A stretch of DNA of 64,000 nucleotides from Candidatus Saccharimonadia bacterium. GTDB lineage: Bacteria; Patescibacteriota; Saccharimonadia; UBA4664. The stretch spans positions 10,027 through 74,026 of the forward strand of contig DATIIV010000020.1 in NCBI GenBank assembly GCA_035479295.1. The letters run 5' to 3'. The notes beneath the pieces are model-generated. The model had not been told where the DNA came from. It did not search any database and was given only the letters and a program-made list of their open reading frames with translations. Shown piece by piece: positions 4,257 through 37,580 of this stretch. How positions within the stretch are numbered: the first letter of the stretch is position 1; the number at the start of each line of letters is the position of its first letter. Both the position numbers and the translations under genes were made by a program.

Positions 4257-6335
4257 ATGGCCCGCGAATACTCGCTCGAAAACACCCGTAACATCGGCAT
4301 TATCGCCCACATCGACGCTGGTAAGACTACCACCACTGAGGGCATCCTTTATCGCACCGGCAAGACGCACAAGATCGGCGAGGTCCACCAGGGCGAGGCC
4401 ACTATGGACTGGATGGCGCAGGAGCAGGAGCGCGGTATCACCATTACCGCCGCCGCCACGACCTGCTTCTGGAAGGGCAAGCGCATCAACATCATCGACA
4501 CGCCCGGCCACATCGACTTCACGGTTGAGGTTGAGCGTAGTTTGCGCGTACTCGACGGCGCCGTCACCGTCTTCGACGGCAAGATGGGCGTGGAGCCGCA
4601 GTCCGAGACCGTCTGGCGCCAGGCCGACAAGTACGGCGTGCCGCGCATTTGTTTCATTAATAAGATCAACCAGACCGGCGGCGACTTCTACAAGAGCCTC
4701 GAGAGCATTCACGAGCGACTGAGCAAGCGGGCCTACGCCATTCACCTGCCGATCGGCTTCGAGCAAGAGATCAACGGCGTCATCGACCTGATCGAGATGA
4801 AGGCCTATACCTACAAGGACTACAAGGACCACGAGCTCATCGAGGGCGAGATCCCGGCCGACATGCTCGAGAAGGCCACCAAGTACCGCAACCACCTGAT
4901 CGAGGCGGCGGTCGAGGCCGACGATGAGCTGATGGAGAAGTACCTGGAGGGTCACGAGCTCACCATCGATGAGCTCAAGCTGGCCATTCGCAAGAGCGTG
5001 CTGACCGGCACCTTCTTCGCCGTCAGCGGCGGCGATGGTCGCGGCGTCATCGTTGAGAAACTGCTCGACGCCATGGTCGACTTCTTGCCCAACCCGCTCG
5101 ATGTCGGCAGCGTCTGGGGCACCGATCCCAAGACCGGCAACGAGCTTGAGCGCAAGCCCAGCGACGAGGAGCCGTTCTCGGGCTTGGCTTTCAAGATTGC
5201 CACTGACCCGTTCATCGGTAAGCTGGCCTTCTTCCGGGTCTACTCGGGCGTGGTTAAGAGTGGTTCGTACATTCTAAATGCCTCGACCGGCGAGCGCGAG
5301 CGCATCGGCCGCCTGGTGCTGATGCACGCCAACTCGCGCGAAGAGGTGCAAGAGGTGCACGCCGGCGAGATTGCGGCGGCCGTCGGCCTTAAGGGCACCA
5401 CCACCGGCAATACCCTCACCGATGTCGACCACCCGGTCATTCTCGAGAGCATTACCTTCCCCGAGCCGGTTATCTCTATCGCCGTCGAGCCCAAGACCAA
5501 GAGTGACCAGGAGAAGATGGGCAACGCTCTGCAGCGCCTGGCCGAGGAGGACCCGACCTTCCGCGTCCACACCGAGGAACAGACGGGGCAAACCATCCTG
5601 GAAGGTATGGGCGAGCTCCATCTCGACATCCTCGTCGACCGCATGAAGCGTGAGTTCAAGGTTGAGGCCAACATCGGTCGGCCGCAGGTCGCTTACCGTG
5701 AGACCATTAAGAAAGAGGCCAAGGGCCAAGGCAAGTTTGTACGCCAGACCGGTGGCTCCGGCCAGTACGGCGATGTCTGGATCGAGCTGACGCCGCTGGA
5801 GCCGGGCGAAGGCTTCGTGTTTGAGAACGGTATCGTTGGCGGTGTGGTGCCGCGCGAGTACATTAAGCCGGTCGAAGAGGGCATTAAGGATGCTATGTCG
5901 ACCGGTATCTCGGCCGGCTTCCCGGTGGTGGATGTTAAGGCCAAGCTATACGACGGTAGCTACCACGATGTTGACTCGTCCGAGATCGCCTTCAAGCTGG
6001 CAGGCCGTCTAGCCTTTAACGAGGTAGCCAAGAAGGCCGACCCAATCATTCTCGAGCCGATCATGAAGGTTGAAGTAACGGTGCCCGAGGAGTACATGGG
6101 CGACGTTATTGGCAACCTTAACTCTAAGCGTGGCCGCATCGAAAGCATGGAGGATCGCGCCGGCGCCAAGATTATTGATGCCAAGGTGCCGCTGGCCGAG
6201 ATGTTTGGCTACACTACCACGCTGCGCTCCATGACGCAGGGCCGTGCCTCCAACTCCATGGAGTTCGACCACTACGAGGAAGTGCCGCGCAACGTGGCCG
6301 AGGAGATCATCGCCAAGCGCACCACCAAGGCGTAA
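4257..6335 (+). CDS. fusA: elongation factor G
   Basis: [20 protein letters not shown] and NKID G-domain motifs, and an overall EF-G-like sequence. Start chosen at [14 protein letters not shown] (AAAGGA upstream) rather than the ORF-track ATG at 4182. Confidence 0.93.
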
Positions 6336-6363
6336 TCTCGCCTCACTTCGAGTACTGCTCGAC

Positions 6364-6396
6364 CAAAAAGACCTCATAGCCGGGGTCTTTTTTGGT
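6364..6396 (+). terminator. rho-independent terminator AAAAAGACC-loop-GGTCTTTTTT
   Basis: 9-bp perfect stem with flanking A and T runs, immediately after the fusA stop. Confidence 0.55.
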
Positions 6397-7067
6397 TGCG
6401 TCATGGTTTTATAACGGCTATGCTTGCCATAGGCCGAGATTGCTACTAGACTCGATAAGGTCGTGCCGACACGTCGAGGGGCCGAGTCGGCAGATAGCTC
6501 TCCGGGAAGATGATGACACCTGGAGAGAAATGGTCCGGCATCTGCCGGGAAGATCCGGACCGCAGGGCTGGTCTGGCCCAGCGTAGCTCGTTTACACTCC
6601 CACGGACGAGATTGCGTTGGGCCAGACTGGTTCCTCAGCCAAGTTCCCTGCAATTGCTTTCGGACGTCCCGACCGCGCCCGGCCCGTCCGATAGGTGGCA
6701 CGTTACTGCTAGCCAACGCACCCTTGTCCCTGTCGGTTCGTTTGCCAGCATAAATGGTTTTTCGGCTCTTGCCCCGAGCCGGCAACCTTGTGCCACATCC
6801 CTTAGAGCGGGGCGGCCTCCCCCAGGCCATCCCCGGTGGCTCGTCGCCCCGCTCTGCTGTATTTGTTGCCTGCCGTTAGGCGGGCGATTGTAGCCCGGCC
6901 TGTGTGCCGGGCTTTGTGCTGCTTAGGCCTGAATCTCAAAACCCCTCGTCTCGGCGCGCCCCTGCTTTATAGTTCTCCTGTGAGGGTTGTTTGAGCGAAG
7001 CAAGTTTCCGCAACGGGAACCTATAAGGCAGGAAGCGCCTGGGGCGGGGGACTCAGGTGCTTAGGGC

Positions 7068-7097
7068 TTTACAAGCCTAGCCCAATCTGTCTATAAT
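7068..7097 (+). promoter_or_regulatory. promoter TTTACA-N18-TATAAT upstream of tuf
   Basis: Consensus hexamers; about 165-nt leader to the tuf ATG, with AAAGGAG as ribosome-binding site. Confidence 0.5.
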
Positions 7098-7264: not shown

Positions 7265-8446
7265 ATGGCTGAATTTGCACGCACCAAGCCGCACTTCAAC
7301 GCTGGCACCATCGGTCACGTCGACCACGGCAAGACCACGCTGACCGCGGCCATCACCATCGTCCTGGCCAAGCACAATCCGTCGGACGTCAACAAGAAGA
7401 TCGATTACGATCAGATTGACAAGGCTCCCGAGGAGAAGCAGCGCGGTATCACCATCTCTACCTCGCACGTTGAGTACGAGACCGAGAAGCGCCACTACGC
7501 GCACGTCGACATGCCTGGTCACGCCGACTACGTTAAGAACATGATTACGGGTGCCGCTCAGATCGATGGCGCCGTGTTGGTTGTTTCGGCCGCCGACGGC
7601 CCGATGCCGCAGACCCGTGAGCACATCCTGTTGGCTCGCCAGGTGGGTGTGCCGTCGATCTTGGTCTACATGAACAAGATGGACATGGCCGACCCGGAGC
7701 TGGCTGAGCTGGTCGAGATGGAGATCCGCGAGCTGCTGGCCAAGAACGGCTATGACGAGAACGCCCCAGTCGTCAAGGGCTCGGCCCTCAAGGCCATCGA
7801 GGGTGATGCTGAGGCCGAGAAGTCGATTCTCGAGCTGGTTAAGGCTATGGACGACTTCTTCCCGGAGCCAGTCCGCGAGCTCGACAAGCCGTTCCTGATG
7901 CCGATCGAGGACGTCTTCTCGATCAAGGGCCGCGGCACCGTTGCCACTGGTCGTATCGAGCAGGGCAAGATCAAGGTTAACGAAGAGGTCGAGATCGTCG
8001 GCATTCGCCCGACCAAGAAGACCGTCGTCACCGGCGTCGAGATGTTCAAGAAGCTGCTGCCCGACGCCCAGGCCGGCGACAATGTGGGCGCCCTGCTGCG
8101 CGGCATTGAGCGCACCGACATCGAGCGCGGTCAGGTTCTGGCCAAGCCCGGTTCGGTTACGCCACACACCGAGTTCGACGCTGAGGTTTACGTCCTGAGC
8201 AAGGACGAGGGCGGTCGCCACACCCCGTTCTTCAAGGGCTACAAGCCGCAGTTCTACATCCGCACCACCGACGTTACCGGCGCTGTGACGCTGCCGGACG
8301 GTGTCGAGATGGTTATGCCGGGCGACACCATCCAGATGAAGGTCGAGCTGATCGCTCCGATCGCCATGGAAGAGGGTCTACGCTTCGCCATTCGTGAGGG
8401 TGGCCGCACCGTGGGTGCCGGCGTGGTGACCAAGATCATCAAGTAG
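7265..8446 (+). CDS. tuf: elongation factor Tu
   Basis: [23 protein letters not shown] and NKMD motifs; 393 aa; EF-Tu across the full length. Confidence 0.97.
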
Positions 8447-8462: not shown

Positions 8463-8492
8463 CAAAAAAGGACCTACGGGTCCTTTTTTGTT
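8463..8492 (+). terminator. rho-independent terminator AAAAAAGGACC-TACG-GGTCCTTTTTTG
   Basis: Perfect stem plus T-run, seen in the sequence. Confidence 0.65.
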
Positions 8493-8649: not shown

Positions 8650-8678
8650 CCTTTACAAACGCCACGTTACCGTTTACA
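8650..8678 (+). promoter_or_regulatory. promoter TTTACA-N17-TACAAT upstream of rpsJ
   Basis: Consensus hexamers; about 90-nt leader. Confidence 0.5.
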
Positions 8679-8767
8679 ATATCGCTCAATACCACTAATC
8701 ATATACCGAGAACTCGTCCGGCCGGTAGAGCCGCGAAGAGGTTACGGTATCGCACCAGGAGACTGAT

Positions 8768-9094
8768 ATGCCCGAAGCCAAGACCGAGACTAAGCAGCGC
8801 ATTCGTATTCGCCTTAAGGCCTACGACTCGAAGGTGATCGACCAGAGCGCTAAGCAGATTATTGAGACCGCCATTCGCACTGGCGCTAGCGTGGCCGGCC
8901 CGATTCCGCTGCCGACCGAGCGTAACGTTACCACCGTGCTGCGCAGCACCCACGTCCACAAGGACGCCCGCGAGCAGTTCGAGATGCGCACGCACAAGCG
9001 CCTCATCGACATTACCGAGCCGACCCCCAAGACCATCGACGCCCTGATGAACCTGAACCTTCCGGCCGGCGTCGACATTGAAATAAAAATGTAG
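8768..9094 (+). CDS. rpsJ: 30S ribosomal protein S10
   Basis: IRIRLKAYD...ETAIRTGA...GPIPLPT...RTHKRLIDI, an S10 signature. Confidence 0.95.
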
Positions 9095-9100
9095 TTTAGC

Positions 9101-9130
9101 CTCAAAATGCTCCCGGAGACGGGGGCTTTT
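9101..9130 (+). terminator. terminator hairpin GCTCCCG-GAGA-CGGGGGC plus TTTTGAGT
   Basis: 7-bp stem with a GNRA-type loop and a U-tract directly after rpsJ. Confidence 0.5.
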
Positions 9131-9150
9131 GAGTATAGAGATCATTTTGC

Positions 9151-9630
9151 ATGCGTAATTATAGTGTAGGCCGGGCTATGTGGCTGATGTCACTACTAGT
9201 GATCTGGCTGCTGAGCCTACTCATTGCTGCCGTGGTAGCAACGGATAATCTTCTGCTCCAGTGGGTCGGCTTGACTCGGGCCGGCCAGATTATTGCAGTC
9301 GCACCACTAGCCGATTCCGTCTGGCGCAATGGACTGGAGCGCTATCGGTATCAGGTGCAAGCAGCTGATGGGCGGCAGTATACCGTCAACGATTATTGGC
9401 TTCACCCGGTGGGTGCGGCTGCAGTAGTGCGGCTGACTCCAGACTCGATAGCTAGCAACGGCCAGGTGGCTCTGGACGGCGATTATTATAGCCCAGAACT
9501 TATTTGGGGCATAATATATTTGATGATCTCGGCTGGGTGGGGCTGGTGGTTGGTAATACAATGGCGGAGCGGGCGCTGGCCGATGAGTCACAGCATGATG
9601 CAGCGATTGCTGCCCTGGTTCTTGCGATAA
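9151..9630 (+). CDS. hypothetical membrane protein (N- and C-terminal TM helices, DUF3592-like topology)
   Basis: Hydrophobic N-terminus LMSLLVIWLLSLLIAAVVA and C-terminus WGIIYLMISAGWGWWLVI. Confidence 0.45.
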   Translation: MRNYSVGRAMWLMSLLVIWLLSLLIAAVVATDNLLLQWVGLTRAGQIIAVAPLADSVWRNGLERYRYQVQAADGRQYTVNDYWLHPVGAAAVVRLTPDSIASNGQVALDGDYYSPELIWGIIYLMISAGWGWWLVIQWRSGRWPMSHSMMQRLLPWFLR

Positions 9631-9822
9631 GCCTGGAGGTGACCTGGCGGGCGCCCTTGACGGTGTCGTGCAGCCCGCGTATGTGCGGTAGCACCCGCAG
9701 ACGTTAGATTGGCTCTGGGGAGGGGCTGAGAGACATGTCCGAGCAGTATGCGCTGTCAATCACAGCCTACAGCAAACCCCAATCAGCGGGGCTTGCTGCC
9801 GAGCCGATTGGGGCGGATTGCG

Positions 9823-10698
9823 CTATTCCTGGAGGAAGAGAGCGGTTGCTTTACGGGTAAAGTAGAGCGGCTCTTGATCGGCGCCATCTGGCTGAGCTGC
9901 TACTTGTCTGGGGAGCGAGTGACTAGTGATATCGCGAGTGTTGACCCACAAGTTGCCGAAGGTCTGACCGGCGCGAGGGTCGCCCGGGGGTCGTTGTCGC
10001 GCCAAATAGAGCGAGACGGTGCCTTCCGGCAGTAACGAACCGCGGGCGGGGGTGCTGCAGTAAGTGATGGGGTCGCCGTCGGGGTGGCCTAGCATTACCA
10101 CGGCATCTGTCAGGCCAGTCATCGGCTGAGGGAAGCCACCCGTGGAGGGGCTATGCCGGGGCTCGGCTGTCGGAAAGAACAGTCGGGCCGGATCGGCCGG
10201 CTCGTAGCTGTATAGCAACCGCGGTAGCGGCAGAGCCTGTCCGGTCGGCGGAATGGGCGCAATCAGTCGGACGAGCAGCGGCCAATCCGGATACCGTTTG
10301 GCAAACTCGGCCAGCAGCTTCTCGTTGACCGTCGGCCGCAGCCCGTGCGGCAGATTATTCGCCTTGAGCGCGGCGGCGAAGGTCTCGGGGCGGGCGTCTG
10401 CCATGGTGATGGTGCGTGTAAACTCGTCGTTCAGCTGGGGCGGCCGTCTCGGCAGATCATGCAGGCCGGGATAATGCGTCGCCGCAATGTCGCGCAAGAG
10501 GCAGGGTCCACCGGTCGGGCTCTTGAATGGTGGGCTCAGCTCGACGGTTGGCACTGGCAGAAGCAGGGCGTTAGGCTGAGCGTTGCTGGCCACCAGGCAC
10601 TCATGACCACCGGTATGCCTCAGCTCTCCGTTTGTGATGGTGGTCTGCCCAAAGTAGATCGTCTGCTTGATCTTGCCGGGCCAGAGTAGCCAGCTCAC
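9823..10698 (-). CDS. hypothetical protein
   Basis: 291-aa ORF, no recognisable motif. The + strand overlapping ORF 9748-10035 was judged spurious. Confidence 0.4.
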   Translation of the reverse strand: MSWLLWPGKIKQTIYFGQTTITNGELRHTGGHECLVASNAQPNALLLPVPTVELSPPFKSPTGGPCLLRDIAATHYPGLHDLPRRPPQLNDEFTRTITMADARPETFAAALKANNLPHGLRPTVNEKLLAEFAKRYPDWPLLVRLIAPIPPTGQALPLPRLLYSYEPADPARLFFPTAEPRHSPSTGGFPQPMTGLTDAVVMLGHPDGDPITYCSTPARGSLLPEGTVSLYLARQRPPGDPRAGQTFGNLWVNTRDITSHSLPRQVAAQPDGADQEPLYFTRKATALFLQE

Positions 10699-10806
10699 GT
10701 GTCGTCCTTCCTGTTGGGATCACAGCCGTACACCACCATACCATATTACCTATTTGCTGCAAGGGTCGTCGCCACAAAATCAGCCGTAGCTGGCCTTGGG
10801 TGTAGT

Positions 10807-11325
10807 ATGATTCCTAAAAAGGAACCAACAGCTATGGCTACCCCGAGCCACGACCAACAACCCGCCATCTTCGATAAAGAGATTCTGCGCTTCACCTTCT
10901 GCGGCATTGTGATCGCCAGCTTCTTTGCGGCGCTAACGGCGGGCACGAGCCTGCGCGACCTGCTTAGTCCCTATGGCAGCCAAGTTGCCACCACCGTGCT
11001 GGGGCTGGCGGCGGCCCTCTCGTTTGCCTATCTGCTGAGCGTGGCCTCGTGGCTCAAGTACAAGAGTCCACGCAAAGTCGACCGGTTTACGCTGAGCGCC
11101 AAAGTGACGCGCTTCTTTTATGACATGACGGTCAACGTTTTTGGTATTTACGTGCTGGTGCTATTGTCGCAATTCGTCATTACGCGCTGGCTGCATCTGG
11201 GTTTTCTGTGGTATCTGCTGCCATTGTACGTGGTGGTCTCGAGCGGGCTGTATGTGGTGGCGCGGTTTGGCTGGTTCTTGGTGCGGGGGTTGATAGAGTA
11301 CTACTACGACGAGATTGCTAGCTAG
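10807..11325 (+). CDS. hypothetical multi-pass membrane protein
   Basis: At least four hydrophobic helices. The ORF-track start at 10699 abuts a divergent gene, so an internal start (ATG 10807 or 10834, the latter with AAGGA upstream) is more plausible. Confidence 0.45.
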   Translation: MIPKKEPTAMATPSHDQQPAIFDKEILRFTFCGIVIASFFAALTAGTSLRDLLSPYGSQVATTVLGLAAALSFAYLLSVASWLKYKSPRKVDRFTLSAKVTRFFYDMTVNVFGIYVLVLLSQFVITRWLHLGFLWYLLPLYVVVSSGLYVVARFGWFLVRGLIEYYYDEIAS

Positions 11326-11479
11326 AGCGAAAAACAGCGCAAGTTGAATGGAAAATTCGTCAATTATTCGTCAGCGCGCGAAAACATGGAGGCCATACTA
11401 CGACGAGATCGCAAGTTAGCCACTTACTTTTTAGTATAATGAGGTGAACAAGAGCCGAACTTAGTGCTATAATGATGAC

Positions 11480-12676
11480 ATGAACTTATTTGGCGAGACA
11501 AATCGACCCTTAGCTGACCGGGTGCGGCCGCAGACGCTTGAGGAGTTTGTGGGCCAGGCGCAGGTGGTGGGCGAGGGCCAGTTTTTGCGCACGCTCATTG
11601 AGCGCGGCCAGCCGACCTCGCTGATTCTGTGGGGGCCGCCGGGTACGGGCAAGACCACCTTGGCGCGCATTATTGCTCGTAGCGGCGACTACGCTTTCGA
11701 AGAGATCTCGGCGGTGACAAGTGGGCTGCCCGAGGTTAAGCGGGTGATTGAGCGGGCGCATGAGCGGCGGCGGTTGGGTCAGAGCACGCTGCTGTTTGTG
11801 GACGAGATTCATCGGTTTAATAAGGCGCAGCAGGACGCGTTCTTGCCGCATATGGAGAATGGCACCATCGTACTGATCGGCGCCACCACCGAGAACCCGT
11901 CGTTTGAGGTGATCGGGCCGCTGCTATCGCGCAGCCGGGTGGTGGTGCTAGAGTCGCTGTCGGTGGAGCAACTGGCGGCGATTATTGAGCGGGCGGCGGC
12001 CCAGCTGCCTGGCGTTGCGGTGGAGCCGGCCGCCCGGCAGCTGCTGGCCGAGCTGGCGGCCGGCGATGCCCGCATGGCTCTGGGCGGCCTAGAGACGGCG
12101 GCCGGGCTGGCCAAGGTCATTACGCCGGCCGTCGTTAAGCAGGCCATGCAAAAGCCCACCGCCAAGTACGACAAGGGCGGCGAGCACCACTACAATGTGA
12201 TCTCGGCCTTCATTAAGTCGGTGCGCGGTGGGGCGGTCGATGCGGCCTTGTTCTACTTGGCGCGCATGCTCGAGGCCGGCGAAGACCCCAAGTTTATCGC
12301 CCGGCGGCTGGTAATCCTGGCTGCCGAAGACATCGGCTTGGCCGATAACACCATGCTGCCCTTGGCCGTTAGCGCCTTTCAGGCCGTTGAGCGCATTGGC
12401 TTGCCCGAGGGCCGCATTGTGCTGAGCCAAGCTACCATCGCGCTGGCCCAGGCGCCCAAGAGCCGCGCAGCCTACGACGCCATTGCTCGGGCCCAGGCGG
12501 CCGCGCGCGAACATCCCACCGCCGAGGTGCCATTGCATCTGCGCAACGCGCCGACTAAGCTCATGAAAGAGCTTGATTATGGTAAGGATTACCAGTGGCG
12601 CCCCGGTTTTGAGCACCCCCAGGGCTTTCTGCCCGAGGCGCTTAAGGGCGAGCACTTCTACCGCGGTCCCCAATAA
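11480..12676 (+). CDS. rarA: replication-associated recombination protein A (AAA+ ATPase RarA/MgsA)
   Basis: LILWGPPGTGKTTLARIIA Walker A, LFVDEIHRFNKAQQDAFLP box, and the RarA C-terminal helical/tetramerisation region. Confidence 0.85.
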   Translation: MNLFGETNRPLADRVRPQTLEEFVGQAQVVGEGQFLRTLIERGQPTSLILWGPPGTGKTTLARIIARSGDYAFEEISAVTSGLPEVKRVIERAHERRRLGQSTLLFVDEIHRFNKAQQDAFLPHMENGTIVLIGATTENPSFEVIGPLLSRSRVVVLESLSVEQLAAIIERAAAQLPGVAVEPAARQLLAELAAGDARMALGGLETAAGLAKVITPAVVKQAMQKPTAKYDKGGEHHYNVISAFIKSVRGGAVDAALFYLARMLEAGEDPKFIARRLVILAAEDIGLADNTMLPLAVSAFQAVERIGLPEGRIVLSQATIALAQAPKSRAAYDAIARAQAAAREHPTAEVPLHLRNAPTKLMKELDYGKDYQWRPGFEHPQGFLPEALKGEHFYRGPQ

Positions 12677-12726
12677 TTCGCTCGGTGGGACTAGTACTGC
12701 AATTACGGTTATGGTTAAATAAGGCC

Positions 12727-13005
12727 ATGAAGAAACCCACGCGCAAATCAGCGGCTCGCGAGACCGACAACGCCTATTTCCTGAAGATCCTGCTCTACTT
12801 TGTCTTTGGCACGATCTGGATTAAGTACAATGGCCAGCCCATACTGCCGATCGGCCTCATTACCGGCCTCTTCTTTATCCACTCCGATCACTTCTCGATC
12901 GATCGTAAGGTTGAGTATGCCATCTTGATTGTCGCGGCACTGATGGGGCTGATGGGCTTCGGGCTGTTCTTGGGCTTCTGGGGGCCAGGACCGGGGAGCG
13001 CCTAG
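12727..13005 (+). CDS. small membrane protein, hypothetical
   Basis: MKKPTRK start after TAAGG; two hydrophobic helices. Confidence 0.4.
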   Translation: MKKPTRKSAARETDNAYFLKILLYFVFGTIWIKYNGQPILPIGLITGLFFIHSDHFSIDRKVEYAILIVAALMGLMGFGLFLGFWGPGPGSA

Positions 13006-13208
13006 TAGTCCTCCACGATGCGGCGTAAGGTTAGCGCCATTGTCCAGGTCATAAAGCCAAACTGAACCAGCGCTAAACCGCTACGTACAACGCTAAATTG
13101 AGTTGGAGTAAAACCATAGAGGAAGCTCAATAGAATATCTGCGCCCAGCAGGTAGGCTAGTTGACGACTGAATGGAGACTGAAAGAGGGTAGGGTGAGAG
13201 AGCTGCAT
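13002..13208 (-). CDS. small membrane protein, hypothetical
   Basis: 68-aa ORF with two hydrophobic helices, convergent and overlapping the previous gene by 4 nt. Confidence 0.3.
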   Translation of the reverse strand: MQLSHPTLFQSPFSRQLAYLLGADILLSFLYGFTPTQFSVVRSGLALVQFGFMTWTMALTLRRIVEDY

Positions 13209-13319
13209 GAGACTCGCCTTTCTCTTGAATTAATTGATTATATTAACACCGTTGCATCTATTTGTCAATGCTTGTGCAATTTAATCGCGAAACGAAGGTC
13301 GGTTTAATCCGGCTATGTG

Positions 13320-13349
13320 TTGACAGGACTGGTCCAGATAGGCTATAGT
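13320..13349 (+). promoter_or_regulatory. promoter TTGACA-N18-TATAGT upstream of rplC, with ~130-nt leader
   Basis: Near-consensus hexamers upstream of the ribosomal cluster that restarts after the insertion. Confidence 0.5.
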
Positions 13350-13478
13350 CACATGGTATTTGCACGGCATATGCGTGTCGCAATCAAAACCCAACCTAGG
13401 ACGTGGGCAGGTCTAGTTCGCTAGAAACCGCTCATAGCCTAGCGCTTATTTTTGCCAGACTTCTTAAAAGGGACGACC

Positions 13479-14135
13479 ATGAAGGCGCTTCTCGGTACAA
13501 AACTCGGAATGACCCAGCTCTTCAATGCTGATGGTAGTGTCGCCCGCGTGACGCTAATTCAAGCTGGTCCGTGTGTAGTGACGCAGGTAAAGACTATTGA
13601 GCGGGATGGCTACAACGCCGTTCAGCTTGGTTATGGTAAGGCTAAGCACCAGCCCAAGCCGCAGGCCGGTCACCTTAAGGCGGCCGAGGCCGACTCGCGC
13701 ACCATGCGTGAGATTCGACTAAAGGACGTCGACGGCGGTCATCCGCAAGCCAAGGCGCTCGTCGAGGCTCAGCAGGCAGCTTTGGCGCTGGAGGTGGGTG
13801 CCCAGCTCGATGTGAGCGTGTTTGAGGCCGGCGACGAGATTCAAGTGACGGGTGTCTCCAAGGGCAAAGGCTTTGCCGGCACCATTAAGCGTCACAACTT
13901 TAGCCGCGGTCCTAAGACGCACGGTTCGCACAACTACCGTGCTCCGGGCTCGATCGGTTCGGGCTTCCCGCAGCATGTCTTTAAGGGTATGCGCATGGCA
14001 GGCCACATGGGTCACGACCAGGTCACCGTTAAGGGTCTCAAGGTAGTGGTGGTTGATGCTGAGCGCAACATTATTGCTGTGTCAGGCGCCGTTCCTGGTC
14101 CCAAGCGCGGCACCGTAACGGTAAGAGGTTTGTAA
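13479..14135 (+). CDS. rplC: 50S ribosomal protein L3
   Basis: MKALLGTKLGMTQLF start (internal to the ORF-track ORF) and the GHMGHDQVT motif region. Confidence 0.93.
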   Translation: MKALLGTKLGMTQLFNADGSVARVTLIQAGPCVVTQVKTIERDGYNAVQLGYGKAKHQPKPQAGHLKAAEADSRTMREIRLKDVDGGHPQAKALVEAQQAALALEVGAQLDVSVFEAGDEIQVTGVSKGKGFAGTIKRHNFSRGPKTHGSHNYRAPGSIGSGFPQHVFKGMRMAGHMGHDQVTVKGLKVVVVDAERNIIAVSGAVPGPKRGTVTVRGL

Positions 14136-14770
14136 TGGCAACGGCTATTTCTTATTCCAAGACAGGCAGCAAGCACGAAGCGGCGGTTAAGCTGGAGCAG
14201 GCTATCTTTGGCCTTGAGGCCAATCACGAGCTGGTCGGCCAGGCCTACCGCACCTATCTGGCCAACGGCCGCAACGCCCATCCGGCGACGCTGACGCGGG
14301 GTCTGGTAGCCGGTGGTGGCCGCAAGCCGTGGCGCCAAAAAGGCACAGGCCGGGCTCGCGTTGGCTCGATCCGCGTGCCCAACTGGCGCGGTGGTGGTGT
14401 GGTCTTTGCGCCTACCGGTAACGAGAACCACACGCTGACGCTGCCGGCCAAGATGAAGCATACGGCGCTGCGCCAGGCGCTCAGCTTGCGGGCCGCAGCC
14501 GGCGATATCGTCGTGCTAGAGTCGTTTGATTCGGCCGACGGCAAGGTTAAGGGCACCGTTGAGCTGCTCAGCAAGATGAAGCTCGAGGGCAGCGTGCTGC
14601 TGGCGGTCGAGACCAAGACTGAGCTCATCATTCGCGCTACTCGCAACCTAGCCGGCCTCAAGACCGTCGGCGCCAAGTACCTCAACGTTTACGATGTCAT
14701 GAACGCCGACAAGTTGGTGTTAACGCAGGCCGCCCTCGATGCGATCAAGGTTTGGCTGGGAGAGAAATAA
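14135..14770 (+). CDS. rplD: 50S ribosomal protein L4
   Basis: GGGRKPWRQKGTGRARVGS motif. Confidence 0.93.
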   Translation: MATAISYSKTGSKHEAAVKLEQAIFGLEANHELVGQAYRTYLANGRNAHPATLTRGLVAGGGRKPWRQKGTGRARVGSIRVPNWRGGGVVFAPTGNENHTLTLPAKMKHTALRQALSLRAAAGDIVVLESFDSADGKVKGTVELLSKMKLEGSVLLAVETKTELIIRATRNLAGLKTVGAKYLNVYDVMNADKLVLTQAALDAIKVWLGEK

Positions 14771-15051
14771 TGAGTCAGATAGTCCTTACCCCCAAGATTA
14801 GCGAGAAGGCCATGTACTTGGCCGAGCGCGGCATCTACGTCTTTGAGGTCCCGACCTCCACTAATAAGATTGAGGTCACTAAGGCCGTCGAGGCCGCTTT
14901 CAAGGTTAACGTTACCGACGTCAACATGATCGTAGCCAAAGGCAAGACCAAGCGGTTCCGCCGGGTGCTCGGTCGCGAGAAGGACGTCAAGAAGGCCATG
15001 GTTAAAGTTAAGGCCGGTCAGTCGATCGCCCTGTTTGAGGGAGCAAAGTAA
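14770..15051 (+). CDS. rplW: 50S ribosomal protein L23
   Basis: MSQIVLTPKISEKA...YVFEV, an L23 signature. TAATG overlap with rplD. Confidence 0.9.
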   Translation: MSQIVLTPKISEKAMYLAERGIYVFEVPTSTNKIEVTKAVEAAFKVNVTDVNMIVAKGKTKRFRRVLGREKDVKKAMVKVKAGQSIALFEGAK

Positions 15052-15902
15052 TGCCAGTTAAACTCTACAAGCCGACTACCCCTGGTCGCCGCGGTATGAC
15101 CTCGGCCGACACCTCGGCTATTACCAAGAAGCGCCCGGAGCGTTCACTCATCGTCATTAAGAAGGCGGGTTCGGGTCGCAACAACCAAGGTAAGATCACC
15201 GTTCGCCACCGTGGCGGCGGCGTTAAGCGCTTCTACCGTCTGGTTGATTTTGACTTTAAGTCGGTGGCCTCGGCCGTAGTTAAGGCTATCGAGTTTGACC
15301 CGAATCGCTCGGCTAACATCGCCCTGGTTCAGATCGATGGTGGCAAGCTGGCCTATGTGCTGGCTGGTTCTGGCATGAAGGTAGGCGACCAGCTCGCTTC
15401 GGGCGAGGAAGCCGCCATCCGCACCGGCAATCGTCTGCCGCTTAAGAACATTCCGGCCGGTACCCAGATCTACAATATCGAGCTGGTGCTCGGCAAAGGC
15501 GGCCAGATTGCTCGCAGCGCTGGCACCAAGGCGCAGCTGGTATCCAAGGAATCAAGCCAGGAGGGCTTTGTGCAGGTCCGCCTTCCTAGCGGTGAGGTTC
15601 GCTTGGTGCACGAAAACTGCCAGGCCACCATTGGCACCGTCGGCAACGAAGCTCACCAGAACATCAAGTACGGTTCGGCCGGTCGTCGGCGCCGTCTCGG
15701 TTGGCGTCCGCAGGTTCGTGGTTCGGCCATGAATCCGGTCGATCACCCGCACGGTGGTGGTGAGGGCGCGCAAGCCACATCAATTTACAAGTATGGCCAG
15801 AAGACCCCGTGGGGCAAGCCGGCGCTGGGTCTCAAGACTCGCCGTCGCAAGCTCACGAACGCAATGATCGTCCGTGGCCGTAAGCAAGGTAGGAGACGCT
15901 AA
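15051..15902 (+). CDS. rplB: 50S ribosomal protein L2
   Basis: GRNNQGKITVRHRGGG...MNPVDHPHGGGEG. Confidence 0.95.
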   Translation: MPVKLYKPTTPGRRGMTSADTSAITKKRPERSLIVIKKAGSGRNNQGKITVRHRGGGVKRFYRLVDFDFKSVASAVVKAIEFDPNRSANIALVQIDGGKLAYVLAGSGMKVGDQLASGEEAAIRTGNRLPLKNIPAGTQIYNIELVLGKGGQIARSAGTKAQLVSKESSQEGFVQVRLPSGEVRLVHENCQATIGTVGNEAHQNIKYGSAGRRRRLGWRPQVRGSAMNPVDHPHGGGEGAQATSIYKYGQKTPWGKPALGLKTRRRKLTNAMIVRGRKQGRRR

Positions 15903-16175
15903 ATGAGTCGTTCACTCAAGAAAGGACCATACGTAGACGAGCGTCTGTTGGGTCGCGTGATCGCGCTGTCGGCCAACGACAAGACGGTGCTCAAGACCTG
16001 GGCGCGAGACTCAACCGTTTCGCCCGAAATGGTCGGCCGCACCATCGCCGTACACAACGGCCGCATGCACGTACCGGTCTTTGTGACAGAAAACATGGTT
16101 GGGCACAAGCTCGGCGAGTTCTCGCCGACCCGCAAGTTCCGCAACCACGGCGGTAAGCTGGCGAAAGGTAAGTAA
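15903..16175 (+). CDS. rpsS: 30S ribosomal protein S19
   Basis: SLKKGPYVD...[26 protein letters not shown]. Confidence 0.95.
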
Positions 16176-16606
16176 TGAAGACGCAAGCAACCGCAAAATT
16201 TGTTGGTACTTCGGCCCGCAAGACTGGCCTGGTCGCGGCGCTTATTCGTGGTCGCCGGGTGCTTGAGGCGCAGACCATCCTGGCCAACACCAACAAGCGC
16301 GCCATCGTTCCGGTGGGCAAGGCGCTTGATTCGGCCGTAGCCAACGCCGAGAACAACTTTAATGCCAAGGCCAAGGATCTGGTTGTAGAGAGTGTACTTA
16401 TCGGTCCGGGCCCGTCGCTCAAGCGCTCGATGCCGCGTGGTAAAGGTAGTGCCGCGGCTATTCTGAAGCGCTCAAGCCACATCACTGTAGTGGTGACCGA
16501 TGGTAAGGCAGTGGCGACACTATCTTCGGCTAAAACGGCGGCCAAGACCGAAGCTAAAGCCGAGCCGACTACCGAGAAGGTCGCTAAGAAAGAGGAGGCC
16601 AAGTAA
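16175..16606 (+). CDS. rplV: 50S ribosomal protein L22 (C-terminal Lys/Ala-rich extension)
   Basis: ARKTGLVAALIRGRRV...TNKRA...NAENN...LKRSMPRGKG. Confidence 0.9.
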   Translation: MKTQATAKFVGTSARKTGLVAALIRGRRVLEAQTILANTNKRAIVPVGKALDSAVANAENNFNAKAKDLVVESVLIGPGPSLKRSMPRGKGSAAAILKRSSHITVVVTDGKAVATLSSAKTAAKTEAKAEPTTEKVAKKEEAK

Positions 16607-17232
16607 TGGGTCAGAAAGTAAATCCGCGCAGTATGCGCCTCCAGATCGACCGCGATTGGCAGTCGCGCTGGTACGCCGATAAGGACTACGCCACCTTCTT
16701 GATCCAGGATCTCAAACTGCGCGCCGCCGTGCAGAAGAAGCTATCAAAGCGAGCTGGTGTAGCGCGTATCGACATTGAGCGCTCGCCTGGTCAGCTGGTG
16801 GTAACGATTCACACCTCCAAGCCTGGCGTGGTCATTGGTCGCGGCGGCACCGGCGCCGAGGAGCTCAAGAGCATGCTCTCGAAGCTGGCCGGCGGCCCGG
16901 TCAAGGTCTCCATCGAAGAGATTAAGAAGCCAGAGACCAACGCGCAGCTGGTCGCCGACAACATTGCCGGTCAGCTAGAGCGCCGTATTGGCTTCCGTCG
17001 CGCCATGAAGATGGCCGTCGAGAATGCCATGAAGAGCGGCGCCCTGGGCGCCAAGGTTACGGTGGCCGGTCGCCTCAACGGCGCCGAAATGGCCCGTCGC
17101 GAAACCGTCAGCCAGGGCAGCATTCCGTTGCACACGCTGCGCGCCGACATTGACTACGCTAACGGCTTGGCTCGCACCACCTACGGCGTCATCGGCGTTA
17201 AGGTCTGGGTGTATAAGGGCACGAAGTTTTAG
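16606..17232 (+). CDS. rpsC: 30S ribosomal protein S3
   Basis: MGQKVNPRSMRL...KH domain...IGVKVWVYKG. Confidence 0.95.
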   Translation: MGQKVNPRSMRLQIDRDWQSRWYADKDYATFLIQDLKLRAAVQKKLSKRAGVARIDIERSPGQLVVTIHTSKPGVVIGRGGTGAEELKSMLSKLAGGPVKVSIEEIKKPETNAQLVADNIAGQLERRIGFRRAMKMAVENAMKSGALGAKVTVAGRLNGAEMARRETVSQGSIPLHTLRADIDYANGLARTTYGVIGVKVWVYKGTKF

Positions 17233-17241
17233 GAAATCGCT

Positions 17242-17667
17242 ATGTTACTACCCAAGAAAACCAAGTATCGCAAGCAAATGAAGGGTCGCCTCCGTGGCGA
17301 GGCTTCGCGCGGCACCGAGATCGCCTTTGGCCAGTTTGGGCTCAAGGCTGAGACCGGCGAGCGCATCACTTCGCGTCAAATCGAGGCCGCCCGACGCGCC
17401 ATGACTCGTTACATTAAGCGTGGTGGCAAGGTCTGGATTCGCATCTTCCCCGACACGCCTATCACCAAGAAGCCGGCCGAAGTCCGCATGGGCTCGGGCA
17501 AGGGCGCCGTCGATCACTACGCTGCCAAGGTTCGTCCCGGTCGGATCATGTTCGAGATGGATGGCGTAACCGAAGAGGTGGCCAAAGAGGCTATGCGTCT
17601 GGCCGCCCACAAGCTGCCGGTTCGCACTCGCTTCCTGGTGCGCGAAGTACCCGGAGAGGTTGAATAA
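17242..17667 (+). CDS. rplP: 50S ribosomal protein L16
   Basis: [16 protein letters not shown]...[20 protein letters not shown]. Confidence 0.95.
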
Positions 17668-17876
17668 TGAAACTCCAAGATATTACCAAAAAGACCGACG
17701 CCGAACTGGCCGAGCTGATCATTACGACGCGCTCTGAGCTGGCCAAGGCTGTTATTGAGAGCCGGACCAAAGAAATTAAAGACACCAAGCAGTTAGGTCG
17801 CCTAAAGAAGACCATCGCCCGCGCGCTTACCATCGCTCGCGAGCGCGAGATTGCCAAACTGGAGGCAGCACAATGA
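17667..17876 (+). CDS. rpmC: 50S ribosomal protein L29
   Basis: 69 aa, helical, at the expected position between rplP and rpsQ. Confidence 0.85.
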
Positions 17877-18124
17877 TTCGCACCCTGCACGGAACAGTCG
17901 TTTCCGACAAGATGGACAAGACGGTGGTTGTGGCGGTTAACACCGTTAAGGAGCACCCGAAGTACCGCAAGAAATATAAAGTAACCACCAAGTTTAAGGC
18001 CCACGACGAGGGTAATACTTGCCAGATCGGTGATCTGGTGGAGATCACCGAGACGCGTCCGCTCAGCCGTGACAAGCGCTGGCTGGTGGCCCGCAAAGTA
18101 ACCGCCAAGGAGATGGAGGCGTAA
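17873..18124 (+). CDS. rpsQ: 30S ribosomal protein S17
   Basis: [16 protein letters not shown]...HPKYRK. Confidence 0.93.
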
Positions 18125-18125
18125 T

Positions 18126-18494
18126 ATGATTCAGGCTGAAACCAGACTCAAAGTCGCCGACAACACTGGCGCCAAGGACTTGCTCTGCATCAAGGTGCTG
18201 GGCGGCTCGCGCCGTCGCTACGCCGCGGTGGGTGACATCATTACCTGCAGCGTCAAAGCCGCCATTCCAGGCGCGGGTGTCAAAAAGAAGGACATCGTGC
18301 GGGCAGTCGTTGTGCGCACGATCAAAGAGACCAAGCGTCCCGATGGCTCAAGCATTCGCTTCGACGAGAACGCGGCCGTGCTCATCAACAAAGACGGGCA
18401 GCCTCGTGGTACTCGCATCTTTGGGCCGATCGCTCGTGAGCTGCGCGATGGTGGGTATATGAAGATCATCTCGCTCGCGCCGGAGGTATTGTAA
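18126..18494 (+). CDS. rplN: 50S ribosomal protein L14
   Basis: [17 protein letters not shown]...[11 protein letters not shown]. Confidence 0.95.
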
Positions 18495-18868
18495 TGAAAC
18501 TCAAGCGCGAAGATAAGGTGATTGTGCTAATTGGTCGCGACAAGGGCAAGACGGGCACCGTAACAGCGGTTATGCCGCGCGCCAACCAGGTGGTTGTCGA
18601 GGGCGTCAATGTGGCTAAGCGCCATACCAAGCCATCACAGAAGCAGCCGCGTGGCGGTATCCTCGAGATCACTAAGCCGATCGACGCCTCCAAGGTAATG
18701 GTGCTTGATCCGCAGTCCGGTAAGCCGGCTCGCATCGGTTACACCATCAAGGCCGACGGCACCAAGGAGCGCGTCTTTAAGGTCAGCCGTAACCACGATG
18801 GCAAGAAAACTAAGAAGGCCGAGGTCACCAAAGAGGCCGATAAGGGTGACAAGGCAGGTAAGAAATGA
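18494..18868 (+). CDS. rplX: 50S ribosomal protein L24
   Basis: KOW motif [17 protein letters not shown]; Lys-rich tail. Confidence 0.9.
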
Positions 18869-19410
18869 CACGTTTTAAAGAAACATACCAGAAAGTAGCC
18901 GTCCCGGTGCTCAAGGAAGAGTTCAAGTACACCAATCCTCACCAGGTGCCTCGTATTACCAAGGTGGTGGTGAGTGCTGGTGTGGGTCGCGCAGTCAGTG
19001 ATGCTAAGCATCTGGACGCCGCGGCTGAGACTCTGGCTCGCATCACCGGCCAGCACCCGGTCGTAACGGTGGCGCGCAAGAGCATCGCTTCGTTCAAACT
19101 GCGCGAGGGCAACAAGGTTGGTACCACCGTGACGCTGCGGGGCGCTCGGGCCGAGGAGTTCCTGGATCTCTTGGTGGCGGCCGTGCTGCCGCGTATCCGC
19201 GACTTCCGCGGCATCTCGGACACCGCTTTTGACGCCAACGGTAACTACTCGTTGGGTCTGAATGATCAGAGTATCTTTCCGCAGATTCCGTTCGACGAGG
19301 TTGGTGCCGTGCATGGGCTGCAGGTCAATGTGGTAACCACTGCCAAGTCGCCCGCCGAGGGTAAGCGGCTGCTTCAGTTAATGGGCTTTCCCTTTAGGAG
19401 GAACGCGTAA
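18865..19410 (+). CDS. rplE: 50S ribosomal protein L5
   Basis: [13 protein letters not shown]...RDFRGIS...NGNYSLGL. Confidence 0.95.
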
Positions 19411-19595
19411 TGGCGCGATTAGCTATGATTATTAAAGCCGCGCGCAAGCCGAAGTTTTCGACCCGCAAGGTCAATCGCTGCAAGGTTTGTGGTCGACCGC
19501 GTGGTTATATCCGTAAGTTTGGCCTCTGCCGTATTTGCTTCCGTGAATTTGCCTCAAAAGGCCAGATTCCGGGTGTGACAAAGGCTAGTTGGTAA
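19410..19595 (+). CDS. rpsN: 30S ribosomal protein S14, type Z (zinc-binding, 61 aa)
   Basis: CKVCGRPRG...CRICFRE four-Cys pattern. Confidence 0.93.
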
Positions 19596-19606
19596 GGAGT
19601 ATAAGC

Positions 19607-19996
19607 ATGTTTTTCAATGATTCAATCGCTGATTTGCTCACTCGAATTCGCAATGCCGCTACGGCGCGCAAGGCAGCCGTGGTCATGCCATACTCCAAGA
19701 TGAAGGAGCAGGTGGCGCGCATTCTCCAGGCCAACGGCTACCTGGCTGAGGTTCAAGTGGCCGAAGCCGGCGGCTTTAAGAGCCTTGAGCTCACGCTGCC
19801 CGAGGATGCCGCGGCTATTACTGCGCTGGTGCGGGTCTCCAAGCCTGGCCGCCGCGTGTATGTCGGCGCCAAAGAGATTCCGGCCGTGCTCGGTGGCCGT
19901 GGTCTGGTGATTCTGTCGACCTCCAACGGTGTCATGAGTGGCCGTGAGGCTCGCAAGGCCAACCTCGGCGGCGAATTAATCTGCAAGGTGTGGTAA
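19607..19996 (+). CDS. rpsH: 30S ribosomal protein S8
   Basis: Start moved to MFFNDSIADLLTRIRNA, with TAAGGAG 8 nt upstream. The ORF-track start at 19589 would put the ribosome-binding site inside the ORF. Confidence 0.92.
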   Translation: MFFNDSIADLLTRIRNAATARKAAVVMPYSKMKEQVARILQANGYLAEVQVAEAGGFKSLELTLPEDAAAITALVRVSKPGRRVYVGAKEIPAVLGGRGLVILSTSNGVMSGREARKANLGGELICKVW

Positions 19997-19997
19997 G

Positions 19998-20537
19998 ATG
20001 AGCCGAATTGGACGACAACCAATTACTGTGCCGGCCGGTGTTACGGTTGAGCAAGTGGGCCGCACCATTAAGGTTAACGGCGCCAAAGGTGCGCTTGAGC
20101 TAGAGCTCATGCCCGACTTAAAACTAGAGCAGGCTGACAGTGTCTTGACGCTCAGTAAAGAGGTGGAGACGCCGGAGACCCAGCGCTCGTTTGGCCTCAT
20201 GCGCACACTCATCAATAACATGGTGGTGGGCGTATCGCAGGGCTTCCAGCGTCAGCTTGAGATTAATGGTGTTGGCTTCCGCGCTAGTGTGGCCGGCAAC
20301 ACTATTACGCTCAGTCTCGGTTTTTCACACCCAGTCAACTTTGTTCTGCCGCCGGGTGTTGAGGCCAAGATCGAGAAGAACGTTATTACGTTAACGGGCT
20401 TCGATAAGCAGGCAGTCGGCCAGGTTGCCGCCAATCTGCGGGCGCTCAAGAAGCCGGAGCCATATAAGGGCAAGGGCATCAAGTACGTCGAAGAGCACAT
20501 TCGCCGCAAGCCGGGTAAGACCGCTACAAAGGGTTAA
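19998..20537 (+). CDS. rplF: 50S ribosomal protein L6
   Basis: MSRIGRQPITVPAGV...KGKGIKY. Confidence 0.95.
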   Translation: MSRIGRQPITVPAGVTVEQVGRTIKVNGAKGALELELMPDLKLEQADSVLTLSKEVETPETQRSFGLMRTLINNMVVGVSQGFQRQLEINGVGFRASVAGNTITLSLGFSHPVNFVLPPGVEAKIEKNVITLTGFDKQAVGQVAANLRALKKPEPYKGKGIKYVEEHIRRKPGKTATKG

Positions 20538-20542
20538 AAATT

Positions 20543-20887
20543 ATGAATACTACACTAACACAGTTACAACGCCGTCGTGCTCGGGTTCGCGCCCGGGTCT
20601 CAGGCACGCCCGAGCGCCTGCGCCTGGCCGTCACTATCACGCTACGCCACATTGTGGCTCAGTTGATCGACGACACCGAGGGCAAGACGCTGGTGTACGT
20701 CACCACGGCTAAGCAGGATGTTAAGGGCACGATGACCGATAAGGCCGTCTGGGTCGGTGAGCAGATTGCGGCCAAAGCTAAGGCCAAGAAGATCGCTCAG
20801 GTGGTCTTTGATCGCCGTGGTCGCATTTACCATGGCCGCTTGCATGCCCTGGCGGAAGCTGCTCGCAAAGCAGGATTGGAGTTTTAA
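20543..20887 (+). CDS. rplR: 50S ribosomal protein L18
   Basis: [21 protein letters not shown]...[12 protein letters not shown]. Confidence 0.93.
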
Positions 20888-21375: not shown

Positions 21376-21384
21376 GATATAACT

Positions 21385-33286: not shown

Positions 33287-33335
33287 GAATTTATTTACTC
33301 ACACCGATCTCTTTGTTTTTGGTATAGTTAAACGT

Positions 33336-37505: not shown

Positions 37506-37580
<75 letters not shown>

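Follow-up and report, generated by a model that had tools for sequence, protein, structure and literature searches.

The rpsJ-rplC Locus

This analysis concerns the 5′ leader of rplC and the separation of that gene from rpsJ in a Candidatus Saccharimonadia bacterium. The window, the whole stretch of DNA that was analyzed, spans 64,000 nucleotides (nt) of contig DATIIV010000020.1 (assembly GCA_035479295.1). Within it, rpsJ follows fusA and tuf, and rplC starts 4.4 kb further on at the head of a long array of ribosomal protein genes (Table 1). The gap between rpsJ and rplC is, from the comparisons below, very probably an old operon boundary and not a recent interruption. The leader of rplC carries a conserved hairpin whose core reproduces the site at which ribosomal protein S8 is bound in helix 21 of 16S rRNA.

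The window was compared with 80 species-level genome loci fetched around rpsJ, onto which its proteins were mapped by tblastn synteny. The closest relatives are L001, L003-L006, and L011, and the best matches of the rpsJ protein in the GTDB species set are Saccharimonadia metagenome-assembled genomes at 88-92% identity. A sister metagenome contig, L081, was compared with the window separately from the 80 genome loci. A second set, 0.59 Mb of metagenome L3 loci from an L3-alignment scan, is restricted to the matches listed and holds mostly distant L3 genes; it was used as an independent set and for specificity, rather than to supply close relatives. Promoter-like sites were scored as matches of 12 to the −35 and −10 boxes with shuffled sequence as the control, and the region contains nine such sites versus 3.5 ± 1.9 in shuffles.

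The start of rplC is the ATG at 13479, fixed by alignment of homologues and accompanied by a Pfam match to Ribosomal_L3. A perfect TTGACA and a −10 box precede the gene in 16 of 16 aligned loci. Both the start and the promoter lie where the original prediction had placed them, with a leader of 123 nt in place of the 130 nt first given. From rplC, 20 genes run to secY. The promoter scan found no plus-strand promoter-like site inside this array, and the one plus-strand terminator-like site (22719, within secY and downstream of rpsH) is probably a chance occurrence. The next promoter lies beyond secY, so the alpha-operon part appears to be a separate unit. As judged from these signals, rplC to secY is a separate operon with its own strong promoter, whose 20 genes would be co-transcribed. 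The S8 gene, rpsH, lies inside the uninterrupted array, which places the gene of the proposed ligand within the regulated unit, and the encoded protein keeps the canonical RNA-binding motifs ...RVY and STS(N/K)G. Elsewhere in the array, rpsE is followed directly by rplO (21375-21385), with no rpmD (L30) between them; a missing rpmD at this place is a known trait of bacteria of the candidate phyla radiation (CPR).

A Conserved Leader Upstream of rplC

The rplC leader is predicted to begin with a variable hairpin, followed by a conserved hairpin and a U-tract. In the conserved hairpin, the basal helix P1 pairs 13396-13400 with 13438-13442 and the middle helix pairs 13403-13408 with 13430-13435. 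Above these lie the two core strands, A13409-G-G-U-C13413 and G13424-A-A-A-C-C13429, and a capping hairpin at 13414-13423. The hairpin with its U-tract is found between promoter and rplC in every one of the 16 aligned loci.

Covariation supports the fold. RNAalifold, applied to a MAFFT alignment, predicts 16 pairs, 12 of them with compensatory changes. In the model-based alignment of 18 sequences (A3), 90% of cells are paired versus 31-43% when the partners are slid, and the covariation score is 0.578 versus at most 0.116. In 500 shuffles, the values observed for the covariation score, the percentage paired, and the number of double-change cells were never attained. The hairpin is also returned by single-sequence folding for 10 of 12 leaders, and it is present in the centroid structure of the window leader.

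A covariance model of the element (R1) gives 18 matches (E at most 4e-4) in 1.29 Mb, each on the coding strand and directly upstream of rplC; L015 and L058, which were not in the seed, are among the loci matched. In the 0.59 Mb of metagenome L3 loci it gives one match, 12 nt before rplC in L084, among the loci listed. The total is 19 matches in 1.9 Mb, with the window leader scoring 57 bits (E 4e-8). These results make it highly likely that the rplC leader is a real cis-element. Rfam 15 holds no match at E<=10 for the window leader or for two variant architectures, and literature searches yielded no paper that connects ribosomal protein leaders with CPR bacteria. To the extent that Rfam 15 and the searchable literature can tell, the S8-mimic leader is undescribed.

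A second conserved hairpin, different from the first, occurs between rpsJ and rplC in Berkelbacteria-like genomes and in some loci labelled Saccharibacteria (L024 ~5300-5350, L025 ~2060-2110, L026 ~10460-10520, L037 ~1130-1180, L052 ~5240-5320). It has the form (A)AGUC-RUAGAU-AUC...[hairpin]...GAUCUAYGRC, in which an A-C or G-U position recurs, and it may be another leader class.

The Leader Core and the S8 Site of 16S rRNA

The invariant part of the hairpin is 5′-A-R-G-U-C [hairpin] G-A-W-A-C-Y-3′, in which the first A is unpaired and the W-A is bulged. Regular helices flank this internal loop on both sides, and the capping hairpin and lower helices all covary. A pattern search of the Escherichia coli gene rrsH identifies the core with 16S nucleotides A595-A596-G597-U598-C599 and G639-A640-U641-A642-C643-U644. 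In this numbering, the pairs of alignment A3 are 596:644 (G-C in 15 sequences, A-U in three) and 597:643 (G-C), 598:640 (U-A), and 599:639 (C-G), each of the latter in 18 of 18. The last three are G13411:C13428, U13412:A13425, and C13413:G13424 in the window. The sequence GA(A/U)AC is invariant in all R1 matches, and RNAalifold predicts the two-nucleotide bulge N641-A642.

The S8 site is a helix interrupted by seven conserved nucleotides; its determinants are the base triples (G597-C643)-U641 and A595-(A596-U644), together with A642, which is invariant, and N641, which varies (PMC4176348). In Thermus thermophilus, the site has G595-(C596-G644) (PMC4176348). The spc mRNA of E. coli carries the same element, and its translation is repressed there by S8 (PMC4176348; PMC10931766). 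The leader core has apparent counterparts of the published determinants: the G597-C643 pair, the bulged N641-A642, and an unpaired 595 beside 596:644. In the Parcubacteria-type leaders L043, L064, and L074 (AAAGUCC...GGAUACU), the core is identical to that of E. coli. A 16S gene for a comparison with helix 21 of the same lineage was sought in all the fetched loci, and none was found.

The strict core pattern was scanned in the 300 nt upstream of five genes. It precedes rplC in 31 of 152 loci, where the background rate predicts 2.7 (binomial P ~1e-23), and it is found upstream of rpsJ in 0/143, rplD in 3/145, rplB in 0/125, and tuf in 1/95. An A stands before R-GUC in 28 of 32 strict-pattern matches, the exceptions being L018 (a genuine leader with U) and three probable chance matches. 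The 596:644 position is G:C (23) or A:U (9), with two mismatched cases. Near rplE, the place of the E. coli operator, the window has no S8-like site; its sole other pattern match is antisense in fusA and at chance level.

The core recurs in at least three architectures of flanking helices. In the Saccharibacteria, it is nested within the putative terminator stem. In the Parcubacteria-like architecture, a separate terminator follows, with a possible alternative pairing of GCCAG with CUGGC seen by eye. A third, unclassified group (L085, L086, L088, L093, L117, L118, L124) has the hairpin and then AUUUUAARUGGGAG, the Shine-Dalgarno sequence. The strict pattern with its controls was used in place of a single wider covariance model, since MAFFT misaligns the 3′ strand near the variable hairpin when architectures are combined in one alignment (A4, A7). 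A constant core in variable scaffolds has the look of a protein-recognition site.

Age of the rpsJ-rplC Separation

Every sampled Saccharibacteria locus has rpsJ apart from rplC, by 0.8-8.8 kb. The distance is 4.4-8.8 kb in the six closest genomes, with the order rpsJ...rarA...o106...rplC, 3-4.4 kb in L007, L012, L017, and L019, and ~0.8-0.9 kb in L010, L013, and L014. CPR2-like genomes have 1-2 kb. In Firmicutes, Actinobacteria, and most others the distance is 20-300 nt, and the independent metagenome set agrees among the matches listed. The split is therefore not a peculiarity of this genome: relatives share the arrangement, the outcome that the original prediction had named as its refutation, and rarA-o106 stands next to rplC in six of them.

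The signals around the gap appear to be conserved as well. A strong intrinsic terminator lies 3′ of rpsJ in 10 Saccharibacteria loci (the window, L001-3, L005-7, L011, L012, and L017). Together with the TTGACA promoter of all 16 aligned loci, it agrees with the original prediction that rpsJ is uncoupled from rplC in transcription, as far as such signals can indicate. In distant Saccharibacteria, only 10-25 nt separate tuf from rpsJ, which indicates that rpsJ ends the tuf unit. In L058, just 275 nt lie between rpsJ and rplC, and a terminator, a TTGACT promoter, and the leader are nevertheless all found in this spacer; transcriptional uncoupling is thus independent of inserted genes, and it probably preceded them.

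Gap expansion is not confined to this junction. The rpsG|fusA junction spans 3-4 kb in L010, L014, and L019, the fusA|tuf distance is about 0.9-2 kb in the window and its five closest relatives (L001, L003-L006), and tuf|rpsJ reaches 5.4 kb in Saccharibacteria. Expansion at these junctions is alike, and no sign of a functional tie between the split and rarA or the membrane protein genes was seen. The same pattern recurs at 33212-38140, where a short-chain dehydrogenase gene and several hypothetical ones stand between the genes for tRNA-Thr, -Tyr, -Thr, and -Trp, which ordinarily lie close together.

Genes within the Gap

The gene content of the gap is that of the original prediction. Every element that the prediction named is there, its position agreeing to within a few bases, so that the observation stands and its interpretation is right in part. 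Its two halves differ in age. Clustering of the gap open reading frames (ORFs) shows rarA to be common to seven genomes, the window and its six closest relatives; o68 is common to four, and o106 also occurs in L007, L012, L015, L017, and L019. No counterpart of o159, o291, or o208 was found in any of the 80 genome loci. The rarA-o106-o68 half is, by this comparison, old at the level of the family, and the o159/o291/o208 half turns over between species. Of the block 9151-13208, whose lineage specificity the original prediction proposed to check, only the rpsJ-proximal half is lineage-specific.

From rpsJ to rarA, contig L081 and the window are collinear, their DNA being 72% identical; o159 is replaced on L081, where an extra gene also precedes rarA. 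No homologue of o159 was found in L081 or in the genome loci, the large protein database having been left out of the o159 search. For o291, the 5.8 billion proteins of that database gave two matches, itself (VLI05_04335) and one 54%-identical protein, which is encoded on L081 at the same position 3′ of rpsJ. o291 is a real gene of very narrow distribution. The o208 protein has an L081 homologue whose best tblastx segment is 77% identical. The last 24 nt of o208 (11302-11325) are repeated 94 nt downstream at 11396-11419 with 88% identity, and L081 carries an extra 143-aa gene where the window has this duplicated end. The duplicated end is a footprint of gene gain or loss.

The RarA domain set is complete in Pfam (AAA 2e-15, AAA_assoc_2 4.7e-22, MgsA_C 2.3e-55). 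Only 7 nt separate the end of the rarA −10 box from the ATG, and the mRNA therefore probably lacks a leader. o106 belongs to a family of proteins of ~84-92 aa with three predicted helices, the motif F-x-I-D-R-K-I/V-E-Y-A (DRKIEYA), 68 unnamed homologues, and no Pfam domain. In Saccharibacteria, its homologues always stand directly before the rplC promoter, distant members included. No evidence for a part of rarA or the small membrane proteins in the rplC circuit was seen, and rarA has its own promoter.

Searches of Pfam, NCBIfam, PHROGs, and PADLOC returned nothing for o159, o291, o208, o106, and o68. No flanking repeats of the block were detected, the repeat search giving short chance repeats and the one 24-nt duplicated gene end, and no tRNA gene lies within ~20 kb. 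The GC content of the block, 0.52-0.65, is within the window range of 0.52-0.66, so that the composition check proposed at the outset reveals no shift.

The fusA-tuf-rpsJ Side

The promoter scan gives fusA, tuf, and rpsJ a promoter-like site each. The promoter of rpsJ was found at 8652-8680 (8650-8678 in the original prediction), and the GNRA-loop terminator reported at 9101-9130 has its stem at 9109-9126. Upstream of fusA, an ABC-F gene (52-1488) and murC occupy the place of rpsL and rpsG; S12 and S7 genes were not detectable anywhere in the window. Both rpsL and rpsG are upstream of fusA in L011, L012, L018, and L058. An ABC-F gene stands directly 3′ of rpsJ in several Saccharibacteria (L012 10421-12064, L019 10428-12074, L062 2171-3979).

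Between fusA and the tuf promoter, ~720 nt (6336-7055) are without a convincing ORF or Rfam match and are unconserved in relatives, in which 0.8-2 kb occupy this place; this may be decayed or lineage-specific non-coding DNA. The 5′ untranslated region (UTR) of tuf, ~165 nt ending at 7264, is conserved, with a 5′ hairpin whose loop is UAUUUUU(U)AU and a long-range helix GGUUCCAUGGCAGAU...AUCUGAAAUGGAAC. It may be another structured leader. The rpsJ 5′ UTR (8700-8767, ACCGAGAACUC...GAAGAGGUUACGGUAUCGCACCAGGAGAC) is nearly the same in L003 (about 9920-9985), and other close relatives have a different rpsJ promoter (TTGACA...TGCTTAAAT) and a different leader.

Table 1. Features of the window from fusA to the promoter that follows secY.
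Feature	Position	Strand	Basis
fusA	4257-6335	+	position in window
tuf promoter, TTTACA-18-TATAAT	7068-7097	+	promoter scan 11/12; both boxes identical in five relatives
tuf (EF-Tu)	7265-8446	+	ORF and tblastn synteny
Intrinsic terminator 3′ of tuf, AAAAAAGGACC-TACG-GGTCCTTTTTT	8464-8489	+	read from sequence; absent from scan-tool list
rpsJ promoter-like site, TTTACA-17-TACAAT	8652-8680	+	promoter scan 10/12
rpsJ (S10/NusE), monocistronic in window	8768-9094	+	Pfam Ribosomal_S10 2e-37
rpsJ terminator, stem 9109-9126 (GCTCCCG-GAGA-CGGGGGC, GNRA loop), then UUUUG	9109-9131	+	terminator scan
o159, candidate membrane protein, gene status uncertain	9151-9630	+	ORF
o291, Pro-rich hypothetical protein	9823-10698	-	ORF and database match
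o208, membrane protein, probably 172 aa from M37	10807-11325	+	172-aa homologue on L081
rarA promoter, TGAACA-17-TATAAT with TG extension	11445-11473	+	promoter scan
rarA/mgsA, AAA+ recombination-associated ATPase	11480-12676	+	Pfam domains
o106, small membrane protein, true start 12727	12727-13005	+	alignment with homologues
o68, small membrane protein, convergent with o106	13002-13208	-	homologues in L001, L003, L005
o68 promoter-like site	13268-13240	-	promoter scan
rplC operon promoter, TTGACA-N18-TATAGT	13320-13349	+	promoter scan 11/12
rplC 5′ leader, 123 nt, putative transcription start near 13356	13356-13478	+	promoter and alignment
Variable 5′ hairpin in rplC leader	~13366-13389	+	folding
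Conserved leader hairpin	13396-13442	+	RNAalifold, covariance model
U-tract UUAUUUUU, terminator/attenuator candidate	13446-13453	+	T's nearly invariant across loci
rplC-secY array, 20 genes including rpsH, gap-free	13479-23192	+	ORF map
rpsH (S8), proposed leader ligand	19607-19996	+	full-length match to solved S8 chains, E ~1e-30
Next promoter after secY, TTTACA-17-TATAAT, strong promoter-like	23256-23284	+	before infA-rpmJ-rpsM

Proposed Regulation and Alternatives

From the core and its position, we infer that S8, and not L4, probably feeds back on the rplC-to-secY operon, with rpsJ left outside. In Saccharibacteria and several other CPR lineages, rpsJ would belong to the tuf transcription unit, closed by its terminator. 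When S8 is in excess over free 16S rRNA, it would bind the nascent leader, a step that we regard as rather likely, and stabilize the hairpin. That the stabilized hairpin in turn leads to premature termination at the U-tract is a more tentative suggestion, to which we give a little less than even confidence. Where the hairpin adjoins the Shine-Dalgarno sequence, binding might instead block initiation or lower mRNA stability, which is likelier in the third group. The outcome would be repression of the whole S10 and spc gene set minus rpsJ. The product of rpsJ, NusE, has a second role in transcription antitermination; a position of rpsJ outside the S8 circuit would fit that role and would explain the tolerance of the junction for insertions. 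With a terminator and a promoter already in place between rpsJ and rplC, inserted DNA would be harmless there, and so the gap could fill with unrelated genes. rarA-o106-o68 would have become fixed early in the family, while o159, o291, and o208 continue to turn over between species.

Several observations weigh against this proposal. S8 binding, the transcription start, and termination are all deduced from sequence. E. coli helix 21 differs from most Saccharibacterial leaders, in which 641 is A and 596:644 is G:C. Chance alone would produce the core pattern ~1.1 times in every 64 kb, and the case therefore rests on conserved position and not on this window by itself. The R1 model finds nothing significant in an E. 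coli rrn operon, a silence to be expected because helix 21 has neither the P1 stem nor a U-tract. Even without a protein, the hairpin is stable in the ViennaRNA prediction (centroid), and the z-score of the whole leader is only −0.36. The U-tract starts 3-4 nt after the stem (3 nt in the window), and a simple terminator scan did not call the site. Four loci labelled Saccharibacteria (L025, L026, L028, L052) are without an R1-type leader, three of them (L025, L026, L052) having a different hairpin instead.

Such points lend something to the view that the hairpin and U-tract act without a protein ligand, as a plain terminator or insulator or as a small independent RNA, the likeness to helix 21 being coincidental. 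The hairpin is predicted to form by itself, a core pattern turns up by chance about once in 64 kb, and the promoter and U-tract would delimit a transcript of ~100 nt. A plain terminator, however, gives no reason for 11 invariant nucleotides and a two-nucleotide bulge while the flanking helices covary and L3 is only 35-80% identical, and the element always lies between promoter and rplC, never after the upstream genes. We consider this explanation unlikely.

Somewhat less likely still is that the leader responds to L4 and attenuates as the E. coli S10 leader does, having been relocated from rpsJ to rplC. L4 is encoded by rplD, the second gene of the operon, and the architecture recalls the E. 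coli S10 leader with its upstream hairpin, long imperfect hairpin, and U-run (E. coli literature as listed in PMC3616713). For Archaeoglobi, too, a candidate L4 leader ahead of rplC has been described (PMC7247131). The invariant nucleotides, however, agree at every position with the S8 site of helix 21 and match no known L4 site, and no Rfam leader family matches the rplC leader. The original prediction held that the L4 target is no longer the rpsJ leader; that the regulatory target lies elsewhere than the rpsJ leader stands, whereas L4 as the regulator is not supported, the core being that of the S8 site. Mimicry of E. coli 23S nt 604-635 (GGUU...GAAACC, from a pattern search) as an L4 site was considered and dropped, since these nucleotides are not known to pair in this manner in the accepted 23S structure (helices 28-29).

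Very improbable is the reading implied at first, in which an intact S10 operon was interrupted when the 4.2-kb block, as a genomic island or mobile DNA for instance, was recently inserted in this lineage: although o159, o291, and o208 are without homologues in the 80 genome loci and the 24-nt duplicated gene end at 11396-11419 marks a local rearrangement, the split, terminator, and promoter-leader are present in all sampled Saccharibacteria and beyond, rarA-o106-o68 is common to relatives, and the block has no integrase, transposase, PHROG, or PADLOC match, no flanking repeats, no nearby tRNA, and no composition anomaly. The reading is contradicted for the split itself and survives only as species-level gene turnover in 9151-11325.

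An old boundary together with an S8-mimic leader controlling rplC-secY is the best explanation of the whole, and we consider it moderately probable. In its broadest and more tentative form, for which our confidence falls just short of even, the rplC leader would be an S8-responsive transcription attenuator of a fused 20-gene S10 and spc operon, existing in several architectures in Saccharibacteria and other CPR bacteria. It would be the first S8 operator outside Gammaproteobacteria, situated at the 5′ end of its operon, and would account for the release of rpsJ (NusE) and the expansion of the junction.

Comparison with Known Systems

Among known systems, the E. coli S8/spc operator comes closest, although the mechanism is probably different. 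That operator, at rplE, has the same element of G597-C643, bulged N641-A642, and A595 with 596:644 (Cerretti 1988; Merianos 2004, via PMC4176348 and PMC10931766), and in both cases the regulated operon encodes S8. The site in the window lies in the rplC 5′ leader and heads a fused S10 and spc operon, whereas the E. coli site is at the third spc cistron. It is a simple capped hairpin, while in E. coli mRNA positions +11 and +80 come together to form the site. Its coupling to a U-tract, unlike the spc operator, suggests attenuation in an element known so far from its sequence. The window element occurs in CPR lineages, and reports of the E. coli spc element are confined to Gammaproteobacteria (PMC3616713; PMC10931766).

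The E. coli S10 leader, an L4- and NusA-dependent attenuator, is closest in architecture and is unmatched in sequence, position, and probable ligand. It resembles the rplC leader in its upstream hairpin, terminator-like hairpin, U-run, and control of rplC-rplD-...-rpsQ. It differs in that it precedes rpsJ, responds to L4, and shares no sequence or structure match, and in that the operon of the window is without rpsJ and extends through spc. The Firmicutes S10 leader (RF03136 S10-Clostridia) is likewise a structured leader of the S10 cluster, one whose ribosomal protein ligand is not identified. It sits upstream of rpsJ, with a weak match at the Firmicute L035 (28 bits, E 0.002, below the gathering score). 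Homology with it was rejected, since the consensus differs, the position is upstream of rpsJ, and the window has no match at E<=10. The L4-Archaeoglobi candidate is also directly upstream of rplC-rplD-rplW-rplB (PMC7247131). It is archaeal with L4 as the assumed ligand, and no Rfam family, that one included if it is in Rfam, matched the window leader.

The gene order also has parallels. In cyanobacteria, plastids, and archaea, tuf (EF-Tu/EF-1a) is linked with rps10 apart from an rpl3-led cluster. As in those groups, rpsJ in the window follows tuf and ends a unit and rplC starts another; unlike in those groups, rplC is just 0.8-8.8 kb downstream of rpsJ on the same strand. The likeness to the cyanobacterial/plastid str arrangement noted in the original prediction thus extends to the tuf-rpsJ linkage with a separate rplC-led cluster, and not to a single rps12-rps7-fusA-tufA-rps10 cluster, given the absence of rpsL/rpsG from the window and the separate promoter-like sites.

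Significance

The regulation of the spc operon outside Gammaproteobacteria is unknown according to a 2024 review (PMC10931766), and the ribosomal protein leaders of E. coli are narrowly distributed (PMC3616713). A putative helix-21 mimic heading rplC-secY in CPR bacteria is a concrete candidate for such regulation, in which the same protein-RNA recognition would be reused elsewhere, probably by a different mechanism.

The split itself, on the loci sampled, is ordinary for Saccharibacteria. Among the syntenic ribosomal markers commonly concatenated for CPR phylogenies is rpsJ. In Saccharibacteria, up to ~9 kb of variable DNA separates it from rplC, and the gene may therefore fall on a different contig. 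An S8-responsive leader would explain in mechanistic terms why rpsJ was long ago left out of the operon.

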